A DNA stretch of 64,000 nt. It comes from Planctomycetota bacterium (GTDB lineage Bacteria > Planctomycetota > PLA2 > JAEUHO01). Below are positions 37,695-41,269 of this stretch, piece by piece (within the stretch, counting starts at the first letter, position 1; each line of letters starts with the position of its first letter). The position numbers and the translations under genes were made by a program. The notes beneath the pieces were generated by a model that was not told the origin of the DNA, did no database searches, and saw only the letters and a program-made list of their open reading frames with translations. The stretch covers positions 192,001 to 256,000 of the forward strand of contig CBDCWP010000044.1 of NCBI GenBank assembly GCA_965223505.1, read 5' to 3'.

Positions 37695-37952
37695 ATGGCC
37701 GGTATCGAATGGGCCGTTCTGATCCTCCAGGGCTACGTCGCGGCCGGCTTCCTCTTCGCCGTGCCGTTCGCCTTCGTCGGCGCCAAGCGCATCGACCCGG
37801 CGGCCGCCGAGGGAACGCTCGGGTTCCGACTGCTGATCATCCCCGGCGCGGCCCTGCTTTGGCCGCTGTTGATTCGACCGTGGTTGCAAGGCGCGGCGTA
37901 CCGCCCGGCGATTCGTGACGCGCACCGCGACGCGGCGGACACGGACGCATGA
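37695..37952 (+). CDS. Small membrane protein, first gene of a 4-gene operon
   Basis: AGGAGG RBS; two hydrophobic segments; FRLLIIPG..LWP. Confidence 0.7.
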   Translation: MAGIEWAVLILQGYVAAGFLFAVPFAFVGAKRIDPAAAEGTLGFRLLIIPGAALLWPLLIRPWLQGAAYRPAIRDAHRDAADTDA

Positions 37953-38368
37953 TCCGGCGGCTGCGGCGGCAACATCGCGTCACGTTCCTGATCCTGGCGG
38001 TCTTGCTTCCGGCCGTGGTCGTGGCTGCGGTCCTGGCGCGACCCGAGCTGCCGCCGGAGCCGGAACAGCTTGCGTGGCGCGACCAGCGCCCCGGGGGCCG
38101 GACGACGTTCGAGATCGCACAGGAGTCCGGCTGGATCACGCTCACCCGCACATCCGCCTGCGGTGCGCCGGACCTGCTCCTCTACTGGGCGCCCGAACCG
38201 GGCCGGACGGGAGAGGCGGGGCTGCCCGAAGGTGCTCGCCTGCTCGGGACCCTCCCGCCGCAGCCCGACATGCGCGTTCGCCTGAGCGAGACCGGGGGAC
38301 ACGTGATCCTCTACAGCCTGGGTCATCGGGTCGTTCACGCGACGCGAGCGCTGGAGGCAGGTCGATGA
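37949..38368 (+). CDS. Membrane-anchored hypothetical protein
   Basis: ATGA overlaps on both sides; TM; PDLLLYW..LLG..LYSLGH. Confidence 0.7.
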   Translation: MIRRLRRQHRVTFLILAVLLPAVVVAAVLARPELPPEPEQLAWRDQRPGGRTTFEIAQESGWITLTRTSACGAPDLLLYWAPEPGRTGEAGLPEGARLLGTLPPQPDMRVRLSETGGHVILYSLGHRVVHATRALEAGR

Positions 38369-39399
38369 GCGTGAACTACCGCGCCGTCGGCTGGAATCGC
38401 CAGAAGCGCATCTACGACCTCGTGATGCTGGCCAGCGTTGGGGTATTCCTGATCGGCTTCACCGCCCTAGGTCGCATCGTCGATCCCAATCTCACGTCGA
38501 TCACACTGATGATCAGGGCGACGGCGGTGGCGGCGTTCGTTCTGCTTCACGTCACGCTGTCGATCGGACCGCTGTGCCGCTTGGACCCCCGCTTCCTTCC
38601 GTTGCTCTACAACCGGCGCCACATGGGTGTGACCGTGTTTGCCCTGGCGGCCGTTCACGCGTTCCTGGTCTACGCGCAGTTCCACGCCAATGGCGTGCTG
38701 CATCCGCTCGTGAGCATCCTCGTGGGGAGCGACCGCTACGACAGCCTCGCATGGTTCCCCTTCCAGCCGCTCGGCCTCGGTGCCTTGATCATCTTGCTGC
38801 TCATGGCAGCGACGAGCCACGACTTCTGGCTGCGAAACCTCACCGCCCCTGTGTGGAAGGCGCTGCACATGCTCGTGTATCTGGCGTACGCGCTCGCCGT
38901 CGCGCACGTCGCACTCGGCGCGCTCCAGCCCGAGCGAAGTCCCGTGCTGCTTGCGCTCCTCGGGCTCGGCGTGGCGTGGATCGTCGGACTCCATGCCTTG
39001 TCGGCGACTCGCCATCGAGTGATCGCGCCCGATACCGGCGACGACTTCGTCGATGTAGCGGCGGTGAGCGAGATCGCCGACAAGCGCGCAAAGATCGTCG
39101 AGATCTCCGGAGAGCGGGTCGCGGTGTTTCGCGACGGCAACCGGATCAGCGCCGTTTCCAACGTCTGCCAGCACCAGAGCGGGCCGCTGGGAGAGGGGCG
39201 CATCGGGAAGAACGGGTGCATCGCCTGCCCCTGGCATGGCTACGAGTACGAGCCGGCGACGGGCGCTTCGCCACCGCCGTTCACGGAGCGTATCCCGACG
39301 TTCAACGTTCGCGTCGAAGGAGATCGGGTCCTCGTGCATCCGCGACCGAACGCACCGGGCACGCGTGTCGAGCCCGCCGTCGTGGAGGGCGTCCGATGA
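38365..39399 (+). CDS. Ferric-reductase-like (MsrQ-type) TM domain fused to Rieske [2Fe-2S] domain
   Basis: NRRHMGV, AATSHD, WKALHMLVY..H; Rieske CQHQSGPL and CPWHG. Confidence 0.88.
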   Translation: MSVNYRAVGWNRQKRIYDLVMLASVGVFLIGFTALGRIVDPNLTSITLMIRATAVAAFVLLHVTLSIGPLCRLDPRFLPLLYNRRHMGVTVFALAAVHAFLVYAQFHANGVLHPLVSILVGSDRYDSLAWFPFQPLGLGALIILLLMAATSHDFWLRNLTAPVWKALHMLVYLAYALAVAHVALGALQPERSPVLLALLGLGVAWIVGLHALSATRHRVIAPDTGDDFVDVAAVSEIADKRAKIVEISGERVAVFRDGNRISAVSNVCQHQSGPLGEGRIGKNGCIACPWHGYEYEPATGASPPPFTERIPTFNVRVEGDRVLVHPRPNAPGTRVEPAVVEGVR

Positions 39400-40148
39400 A
39401 CGACGACTTCTACGTCGGCTATCACAAGCAGGCCGCGCCGCGCGTTGCTTCCTTCCTGCGCAAGGCGGTGCCCGTCGTGGTGGTCACCGCGCTCGTCGTC
39501 GGCGTCGTTGCGCTCACGGCCCATCGAAGGGTCGAAGTGTCCGTCTACGAGGCGCGAGAGATCCGTGAGCTCGAAGGTGTCATCCAGGAAGCGCCCTACC
39601 CGATGCTCCTCGTGGAGCGCCCGGGGCAGGCGGCGTCGGCGGCGCCCTACTCACGCTATCTGATCGTTCGATCGGGGCGGTACGGCGCAGCCGAGGACGT
39701 ACGCGGCCTGAACGGTCGTCGTGCCCGAGTTCCGGCACGGCTCATCTACCGGGGCAATCACACCGTCCTCCAGCTTGCGGGACCGATCGAGCCGCTCGAC
39801 GGCCCCGTCGTCGTGCCTCCGGATCCCGTGCGTGTCCATGACGTAGCTGTCGTGGGGGAGGTCGTGGACGGCAAGTGCTACCTCGGCCGCATGAGCCCCG
39901 GCGGAACGAAGGTCCATCGCGGGTGCGCGGCGCAGTGCATTCGCGGCGGCATCCCGCCGATCCTCGCCTCGATCGACCCGAGCGGCGTGCCCATGTACTT
40001 CCTGCTGACCTCCCCTGACGGGGCGCCGGTCAAGGACGCAGTCATCCCGTTCGTTGCAGAGCGCGTCCGCGTACGTGGCAGCTGGTATCGCCATGGAGAT
40101 CTCTACGAACTTCGCGCGGATCCGTCGACGTACGAGCGCGTGCCCTAG
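39396..40148 (+). CDS. Membrane-anchored protein with Cys/His motif
   Basis: GEVVDGKCYLG..HRGCAAQCIRGGIP; ATGA overlap. Confidence 0.75.
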   Translation: MNDDFYVGYHKQAAPRVASFLRKAVPVVVVTALVVGVVALTAHRRVEVSVYEAREIRELEGVIQEAPYPMLLVERPGQAASAAPYSRYLIVRSGRYGAAEDVRGLNGRRARVPARLIYRGNHTVLQLAGPIEPLDGPVVVPPDPVRVHDVAVVGEVVDGKCYLGRMSPGGTKVHRGCAAQCIRGGIPPILASIDPSGVPMYFLLTSPDGAPVKDAVIPFVAERVRVRGSWYRHGDLYELRADPSTYERVP

Positions 40149-41185
40149 CCGCCGTCGATTACCGACATGGGCTGGACCGACAGCGAGCTGAACCGCTGCG
40201 TCTTGCCGTCGAGCTTCTGGTCGAGGATCTTCTCGAAGACCGCCTGCTTCCACTCCAGAGGCGTACGTGGACTCGTTGCCGCGATCGCGTCGTGGATCTG
40301 GATCGAATAGAGCCACAGGCCGCCGGGCTCGACGACGGTGATGGTCTCCGATGAGAGACCGATGCCGGACTTCGACAACAGCGCGACGCTCATCACGTCG
40401 TCGGCCGTCGCGCCCATGGCCAGCCGCTGCTTCAGCTTCCGATGCGCGGCGGAGACGATCGACTCCGCGAACTCGGGCGTGATCTCGTGTTGGGCCGCGA
40501 TCTCGTCTCGGCGCTTGCGGTTGTAGTCCTCGATCGCGTGATCGGGCGCGCCCTTCGAGCTCTCATAGAAGGCCGCCGCGCGCTCGATGGCCGCGAGGGT
40601 CACGGCCGGCGACTGCAGCGCCGGCAGGCAGTCGAAGACCATGCCGTCGGGACGGCAGAAATACAGCGCGATCTCGCCGCCGATCGTGCCGCGAACGCTC
40701 TTGCCGTCGCCCAGGTCGAACTCGGCGATGGCCACGGGCGAGACGGACTCCCAGACCGGGGTGAAGGACTTGCTGACCGCGTCGATGATCCGGCGATCCG
40801 AGAACGTCACGGTTCTCGCAAGCTTGCCGTTCGCTCAGCAGAACTCCTCGTCGAACTTCCCGAAGAGGTGCAAGACCATCAGCGGCTTGTCTCCGCCCTT
40901 GGCTTCCTCCACGGAGCGCCGCCAGAGCAGGCGGCCGTCGCCACCCCACTGGCCGGTGATCTTCGAGAGCGCGCGCCGGCTGTGAACCTGCACCTTCACG
41001 CTGTCGCTCTCGAGTCCCGCCTGCAGGTCGGGAATCGCGTCTGCCCCCTTGGCGGCCCACGCCTGCACGGCGGCGCGCGCAACCTCCGGGTCGCCGCGGA
41101 ACTCGGCGAACGGCTGTTCACTCTGCGCATCACCGCAGGCGGCGAGCGCGACCAAGGCGATACAGGCGAGCACGGCGTGCTTCAT
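40145..41185 (-). CDS. Putative selenoprotein: Selenoprotein-N-like lipoprotein with C-U (in-frame TGA 40835-40837)
   Basis: Lipobox LAAC; KPLMVLHLFGKFDEEFC-TGA-ANGKLARTVTFSDRRIIDAVSKSFTPVWESV joins the two ORF-track pieces in frame; SECIS-like hairpin. Confidence 0.85.
40791..40829 (-). promoter_or_regulatory. SECIS-like hairpin
   Basis: Stem CGAGAAC/GTTCTCG, loop CGTGAC at +24; lower CGGC/GCCG. Confidence 0.65.
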
Positions 41186-41269
41186 GGCGGCCTCCCAACG
41201 GGCTGAGGACTCAGCCTGCCTGTGGAAACGAGCGGCGGTCGCAAAGAGTTCGCAAAACCCCGGAAGCGA

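Follow-up and report, generated by a model that had tools for sequence, protein, structure and literature searches.

The window analysed here, 64,000 nucleotides from a Planctomycetota bacterium (GenBank assembly GCA_965223505.1, contig CBDCWP010000044.1, positions 192,001 to 256,000 of the forward strand), contains on its reverse strand a gene whose apparent internal stop codon is almost certainly to be read, as predicted from homologous sequences, as selenocysteine (Sec) in an exported bacterial redox protein. Our overall reading, to which we assign a probability of about 75%, is that the gene specifies a 346-residue exported lipoprotein in which a Sec insertion sequence (SECIS) directs the incorporation of Sec117, that this lipoprotein has a thiol/selenol oxidoreductase role, and that it is a paralogue of a bacterial branch resembling animal selenoprotein N (SELENON).

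The locus forms a single frame of 346 codons (41185-40145, minus strand) with one in-frame TGA, codon 117, which directly follows the codon of Cys116. An original prediction, made from the letters of the window without database searches, had placed a selenoprotein gene at 40145..41185. These coordinates proved exact, as ATG, TAG and the lone in-frame TGA were all located, and the quoted read-through sequence HLFGKFDEEFC-U, with its Cys-Sec dyad, was reproduced without deviation; in the product it continues as HLFGKFDEEFC-U-ANGKLARTVTFSDRRIIDAVSKSFTPVWESV. Translation with the standard table splits the locus into two open reading frames (ORFs) of 116 and 221 amino acids. The claim that this is a selenoprotein gene is borne out by the exchange of TGA and Cys in homologues, by a full Sec machinery in the same genome and by a covarying SECIS.

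Homologues and decoding machinery

In a word-indexed database search each of the 67 matches covered just 55-64% of the query, with lengths of 192-249 amino acids. An exhaustive phmmer search gave 1225 matches; among the best 150 of these that were listed, many begin at query residue 126 or stop at residue 116, and others, of 300-670 amino acids, span the TGA position uninterrupted. The full-length homologues have a Cys aligned opposite the TGA, within the motif L-S-C-A-N-S-R-F-F-R-T. The family-invariant Asn119 and Arg124 are encoded in the interval from the TGA to the GTG at which gene callers restart.

Across 401 genomes of this phylum, a six-frame search returned 100 matches in 70 genomes, 79 of the 100 with an in-frame TGA when counted by rows. 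We inspected 72 loci (30 from the six-frame search, two from the genome contigs and 40 of the remaining 70 rows), and the family hidden Markov model matched 78 frames in 71 of them. At the position aligned with codon 117, these frames have TGA in 63 cases (seven of them one column off through an alignment slip, one read separately from the motif listing), Cys in 14 and Asp in one. Such a column, TGA or Cys in 77 of 78 frames, is beyond chance expectation. The residue preceding Sec is Cys in 42 of the 55 exactly aligned frames and Thr, Ser or Leu in the rest; 13 of the Cys forms have Ser there and one has Thr, which gives the motif S/T-C-A-N-S. Since the Cys forms are single unbroken ORFs and the frame stays open past the TGA in all Sec loci examined, both halves belong to one gene; the two halves were not encountered as separate genes in relatives, an outcome that the original prediction had named as one that would speak against it.

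The same genome, an assembly of 44 contigs that is 92.5% complete, encodes SelA (436.7 bits), SelB (335.7 bits, above its cut-off), a Sec-type SelD with an in-frame TGA of its own (338.1 bits) and one tRNA-SeC with the anticodon tca. On contig C8 of this genome (G000:C8:37088-39232), selA is followed directly by the TGA-containing selD.

A SECIS hairpin within the coding sequence

The mRNA of the gene can form the hairpin CGAGAAC-CGUGAC-GUUCUCG (40818-40799), which starts 16 nt past the UGA and has a stem of 7 bp and a loop of 6 nt. The distance from UGA to loop is 23 nt, G-U occupies loop positions 2-3, and the minimum free energy is -13.3 kcal/mol. The published model of the bacterial SECIS allows 16-37 nt from UGA to loop, asks for a G in the first two loop positions and sets a minimum free energy of -7.5 kcal/mol or below, limits that this hairpin, with its loop CGUGAC, satisfies. 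As in fdhF and other SECIS elements of the bacterial consensus type, it is a stem-loop inside the coding sequence with matching spacing, loop size, loop G-U, stem length and stability. It differs from them in that its sequence is specific to the family; no Rfam model matched the window at gathering threshold, and no tRNA was found in it.

For a covariation alignment we used 28 Sec-type loci (27 distinct rows) from L013-L044, with the four Cys-type loci of that set excluded. Over the seven pairs of the stem, 95.8% of positions are paired across the 28 loci, and five of the seven pairs have changed on both sides, for example from A-U to C-G, A-U to U-A, A-U to G-C and C-G to G-C. In 500 column shuffles the observed value was not attained for any of the pairing measures, and when the 3' arm was slid by 1-3 columns as a control, pairing fell to 20-55%. 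In the Cys-form loci the equivalent bases are unpaired, as judged by eye in three sequences. The 7-bp SECIS-like stem proposed in the original prediction is therefore not only present but accompanied by compensatory changes across the 28 Sec loci, and we regard this comparative evidence for the predicted hairpin as decisive.

The stem is encoded by the codons of A-R-T-V-T-F-S. As these include conserved residues (R-T-V-T-F-S), the constraints on protein and RNA are entangled. In a paralogous clade the Arg codon AGA is replaced by CGU alongside a change of Phe-Ser (UUC UCN) to Tyr-Ala (UAC GCN), so that protein and RNA shift together. The invariant Arg at U+7 (window 40812-40818) is encoded by AGA in most Sec forms, within the 5' arm of the SECIS; in three Cys-form sequences its codon is CGC or CGU. 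AGA is perhaps a rare codon in GC-rich genomes of this kind.

Table 1. Features of the selenoprotein gene, in window coordinates
Feature	Position	Strand	Basis and remarks
Whole gene	40145..41185	-	346 codons plus TAG, with one in-frame TGA predicted to be read as Sec; homologues
Start codon ATG	41185-41183	-	Read from sequence
Stop codon TAG	40147-40145	-	Read from sequence
Shine-Dalgarno-like GGGAGG, 5 nt upstream of ATG	41191..41196	-	Read directly
Putative signal peptide with lipobox L-A-A-C (residues 1-17, Cys17)	41135..41185	-	Sequence and orthologues
HEAT-like helical segment (residues 26-77)	40955..41110	-	
Predicted thioredoxin-like domain (residues 83-216), Cys116-Sec117 at the N-terminus of helix alpha1	40538..40939	-	
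TGC-TGA, codons of Cys116 and Sec117	40835..40840	-	TGA itself at 40837-40835; homologous frames
Predicted bacterial SECIS hairpin, 16 nt past UGA	40799..40818	-	7-bp stem, 6-nt loop; covariation; fits the bacterial SECIS model
C-terminal, mostly helical domain (residues 217-346)	40148..40537	-	Homologue alignment and AlphaFold model

Export and fold

The product begins with MKHAVLACIALVALAAC and contains the lipobox L-A-A-C with Cys17. A lipobox-like context, that is a Cys after a hydrophobic stretch, is found in seven of the eight closest full-length orthologues displayed; in three shorter orthologues the signal peptide is of the ordinary kind and the HEAT segment is missing. These sequences support a product that would be exported and, in most close orthologues, lipid-anchored, which accords with the periplasmic Sec protein and the lipobox that had been proposed.

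An AlphaFold2 run on a 135-sequence alignment yielded a model with a mean predicted local distance difference test score of 89.7 and a predicted template modelling score of 0.87. It comprises helices at residues 33-77, within a HEAT-like segment (residues 26-77) of the kind that the original prediction had also noted, followed by strand beta1 (102-109) before the TGA and helix alpha1 (118-125) behind it. More strands continue to residue 188, and the C-terminal domain is helical. Because beta1 precedes and alpha1 follows the TGA, the model places both sides of the codon in one domain. The C-terminal domain (217-346) is a shortened version of that found in Cys homologues of 400-500 amino acids.

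When the model was compared with 48,161 PDB representatives by VIA-align, residues ~83-216 were superposed on exported domains that have a thioredoxin fold (Thioredoxin_7/DsbH type). In this model Sec117, at the N-terminus of alpha1, would occupy the position of the attacking Cys, the first Cys of CxxC in thioredoxins. The Cys homologues scored below threshold against Thioredoxin_7 (20.2 and 17.9 bits, cut-off 27). A thioredoxin-like fold is what the protein has in common with Thioredoxin_7, Thioredox_DsbH (DUF255) and DsbD-gamma domains (PF13899, PF03190; 3f9u, 3ira, 1vrs, 2ju5). These domains have a CxxC, whereas here the motif is C116-U117-A-N-G with no Cys at +3, and a lone Cys in homologues; the protein also remains unmatched to PF13899 and PF03190 at gathering score and possesses additional N- and C-terminal domains. 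A short match (19 residues, E 0.053 to 1.2) to domain V of DNA polymerase tau was rejected as chance.

A sister branch with an SCUGSG motif

Planctomycetota contain a sister branch with the motif DDESC-U-GSGK-LR. Its representative from genome G292, a protein of 407 residues, reads LFGTLDDESC-U-GSGKTLRAGPLS...LNEEFVNAW and has a different N-terminal domain of roughly 250 residues. Full-length Cys homologues of this branch read S-C-C-G-S-G. With a profile of the branch, 13 matches in 12 of the 401 phylum genomes were obtained at E <= 1e-10, 11 of them with a TGA, and eight of the 12 loci fetched from these genomes contain the pattern C-U-G-[ST]-G-K.

An hhalign comparison matches the profiles of the two groups, Sec to Sec, across 105 columns (E 7e-10, probability 96.6%), and the SCUGSG profile detects the present gene across its TGA in its own genome (E 9.5e-6). 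The hairpin of the sister branch, GAGAGCG-GGUC-CGCUCUC, lies in a register identical to that of the present gene: in both branches the SECIS covers the same codons, U+6 to U+12, that is the conserved Arg and the residues following it. With its F-C-U-A-N-G motif and other flanking domains, the present protein is at best a paralogue of the SCUGSG branch, as far as the alignments indicate. A joint tree of the two was dropped, as hmmalign placed only ~60 of 117 columns of the branch. The superfamily as a whole is large, is expanded in Planctomycetota and was found in no catalogue or family library checked.

Two further members are present in the same genome. One of them, the third superfamily member of this genome (protein P0255, G000:C5:43408-43593), has a signal peptide and a TGA in SQDGGW-U-PAAEVLRAGPFSD; this Trp-Sec variant was found with the SCUGSG profile (E 0.0012). 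The other is a Cys-type paralogue (G000:C5:31240-32451), a 450-amino-acid open frame with A-V-S-C-A-N-S and no stop, which is the top match to the family profile (436 bits).

Probable relation to animal selenoprotein N

According to the available part of a 2026 review (PMC12839072), SELENON has an SCUG motif with Sec at 458/462, as well as a 'thioredoxin-like motif', and the pathogenic substitution Arg466Gln lies four residues further on. SCUG with an Arg at U+4 agrees with S-C-U-G-S-G-K/R; the sister branch has S-C-U-G-S-G-K. We consider it probable that the SCUGSG branch is homologous to the thioredoxin-like domain of SELENON, and this branch is likely a bacterial relative of the animal protein. 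The link between the present gene family and SELENON is an indirect one that runs through this branch. Beyond SCUG and the Arg at U+4, the original prediction compared a longer stretch of animal SELENON, judged alike in spacing and character; we treat that longer motif, with which the extended stretch of the sister branch would also agree, as an assumption.

Like SELENON, the present protein would be extracytoplasmic or luminal; in both, Cys and Sec stand side by side in a region described as thioredoxin-like, and the RNA has a hairpin immediately 3' of the UGA. The available parts of two sources (PMC12936836; PMC8704476) describe the Sec codon redefinition element (SRE) of SELENON, a functional hairpin right after the UGA, as unusual among eukaryotic selenoproteins and similar to a bacterial SECIS. 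In other respects the two proteins differ: SELENON has a type II membrane anchor and an EF-hand, whereas here we find a lipobox, a HEAT-like N-terminal segment and a helical C-terminal domain of its own. The original prediction had presented the protein as a counterpart of SELENON in its own right. This claim did not hold, as the motif is F-C-U-A-N-G and not S-C-U-G, the N- and C-terminal domains are unlike those of the SCUGSG branch, and a Pfam search at E <= 1 detected no EF-hand. Since both the SCUG and the EF-hand are missing, we advise against classing the protein as a SELENON orthologue; by its sequence it would stand one step further from SELENON than the SCUGSG branch does. A more far-reaching scenario, which we regard as rather doubtful, is that animal SELENON descends from an exported bacterial selenoprotein of this superfamily with a thioredoxin-like Cys-Sec domain, the SRE then being a fossil bacterial SECIS.

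Proposed mechanism

SelB and tRNA-Sec would read the UGA at codon 117 under the direction of the intragenic hairpin that begins 16 nt further on. The resulting protein may serve as a membrane-anchored thiol/selenol oxidoreductase facing the periplasm, with Sec117 as the nucleophile that would attack an oxidised cysteine of an envelope protein or a peroxide. Cys116 could resolve the intermediate by forming a selenenylsulfide with the adjacent Sec117, a chemistry familiar from the GCUG end of thioredoxin reductase; a periplasmic reductant would regenerate the Cys116-Sec117 centre. The invariant residues Asn119, Arg124, Trp145, Tyr175, Asp185 and Pro188 probably shape the active site.

The adjacent Cys-Sec of mammalian thioredoxin reductase can form an eight-membered selenenylsulfide ring. 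The adjacency of Cys and Sec is what its GCUG centre and the present protein have in common; in the reductase the dyad sits on the flexible C-terminal tail of a flavoenzyme, whereas here it lies in a thioredoxin-like domain at the N-terminus of a helix. The SCUG of SELENON has likewise been called 'reminiscent of GCUG' in the available part of the review cited above (PMC12839072).

Alternative explanations

Several observations weigh against the reading proposed here. Taken alone, the hairpin is no more stable than GC-rich shuffles (z -0.59, with 56 of 200 shuffles folding as well, and z -0.65). No Pfam or NCBIfam family covers the protein (0 NCBIfam matches at E <= 1). With Foldseek, nothing in the PDB reached E <= 0.001; the matches were weak ones to thioredoxin folds, at best E 0.019. 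Most Cys homologues carry a lone Cys (S-C), so a two-chalcogen mechanism is not general to the family. No conserved neighbourhood hints at a substrate or reductant, as the flanks differ across seven orthologous loci (kinase and ECF sigma factor; FG-GAP; UvrA; RibD/HAD; ABC/DUF188; S9 peptidase and P-type ATPase; prepilin peptidase). Finally, in the available part of the 2026 inventory of prokaryotic selenoproteins (PMC13188914), most families with a C-U motif are linked to metals or organometals (HgcA, the MerB-like SaoL, MbdU and a CopZ-like 2Fe-2S protein). Three other explanations were weighed. That the TGA is a real stop, which would leave either two genes (a 116-residue lipoprotein and a 221-residue protein from a GTG at 40810) or a recent pseudogene, would account for the split annotation by gene callers in every database entry found and for the GTG nine codons past the TGA. 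We give this very little credence, since the eight codons between TGA and GTG hold the family-invariant Asn119 and Arg124, the TGA is kept in 63 of 78 frames with Cys substituted in 14, the AlphaFold2 model unites both sides of the TGA in one domain, and a covarying SECIS is accompanied by complete Sec machinery in the genome. A metal or metalloid ligand site is another conceivable role for the Cys-Sec dyad, making the protein a periplasmic metal handler (e.g. for Cu, Hg, As or Se) and not a thiol oxidoreductase. Besides the metal-linked C-U families, an adjoining heavy-metal P-type ATPase with HMA domains at the orthologous locus L014 is in line with this, as is the impossibility of an internal disulfide in the single-Cys homologues. 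Yet the metal ATPase is a neighbour in just one of the seven loci, the chalcogen occupies the site where a thioredoxin fold normally has its nucleophile, and the invariant columns include no additional conserved Cys or His ligands. We retain this explanation, as a quite improbable one, because the Cys homologues are mostly lone-Cys forms and the catalogued C-U selenoproteins are mostly metal-linked.

It could also be that the protein is a real bacterial selenoprotein whose resemblance to SELENON is convergent, the vicinal Cys-Sec in a thioredoxin-like fold having arisen independently. SELENON indeed surfaced in no sequence search: word-indexed searches with the present protein, with an SCUGSG protein and with the SCUGSG alignment returned only bacterial entries named 'hypothetical protein'. 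Searches of the PDB by sequence, by profile and by Foldseek gave nothing SELENON-like, and the ESM Atlas, queried with the natural Cys homologues P0106 and P0220, gave only bacterial clusters and no SELENON-like match. As candidates were chosen by word sharing, the absence of SELENON from these searches carries little weight. The protein's own F-C-U-A-N-G motif, flanking domains that differ from those of the SCUGSG branch, an hhalign match of just 105 columns and the undetected EF-hand also fit convergence. On the other hand, the SCUGSG branch shows an extended stretch, DDESC-U-GSGK-LR...LNxxF, that goes beyond C-U alone, and it agrees with SCUG plus an Arg at U+4 as given in the literature (available part of PMC12839072). 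From this comparison convergence appears unlikely, and we prefer an exported, SECIS-dependent thiol/selenol oxidoreductase that is paralogous to a SELENON-like branch.

Novelty and significance

Selenoproteins that combine a thioredoxin fold with a bacterial SECIS are well known as a kind; this one stands out as a variant by its C-U centre, by its domain architecture and by how large the uncatalogued superfamily is. The family was not found in the 119-family table in the available part of the May 2026 inventory (PMC13188914), from which the superfamily as a whole is apparently absent, too. Since gene callers split the gene, as they do dozens of its relatives per phylum sample, an exported selenoprotein superfamily is absent from annotations, NCBIfam and Pfam. 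A literature search confined to openly readable papers and supplements revealed no description of bacterial SelN relatives; the hits in BSepDB proved to be just the words 'selenoprotein name'. SCUGSG-type strings occurred neither in the main texts searched nor in the supplements of PMC11227280, PMC3316567 and PMC2375036. A 2007 supplement lists SelN for vertebrates only, while bacterial homologues are listed for SelW and DI.

A vicinal Cys-Sec at the active-site position of a thioredoxin fold is unusual, and the natural series of C-U, T-U, S-U and S-C forms invites biochemical comparison. If the link to SELENON is true, bacteria would make it possible to model, in a simple setting, a protein of human muscle disease that is still described as 'enigmatic' in its catalytic role (available part of PMC12936836). 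If SELENON in fact descended from this superfamily, the Planctomycetota paralogues (C-U, T-U, S-U, W-U, S-C) would be a tractable system for SELENON chemistry.

Neighbouring genes and further observations

In the window the selenoprotein gene is preceded by a SUI1/YciH gene upstream and faces a convergent gene downstream. The latter ends at 40148 and matches no Pfam family; it lies between the 3' end of the selenoprotein gene (40145) and, ~750 bases past that end, an ORF on the plus strand (37915-39399) that joins a Ferric_reduct transmembrane domain to a C-terminal Rieske [2Fe-2S] domain.

Other observations concern the relatives. The SCUGSG gene of G292 has as its neighbour a TlpA-like frame (L085:3381-4316, plus strand, G292:C23) that contains a TGA in frame. 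The motif around this codon, LWSVT-U-HNC, is of the type U-x-x-C, and the frame probably represents a further selenoprotein split by gene callers. The metagenomic SCUGSG homologue P0215 (668 amino acids) begins with an extracytoplasmic function (ECF) sigma factor (Sigma70_r2 and r4_2), which points to a gene fusion or to two genes called as one. At locus L016, too, an ECF sigma factor is encoded divergently upstream of the orthologue.

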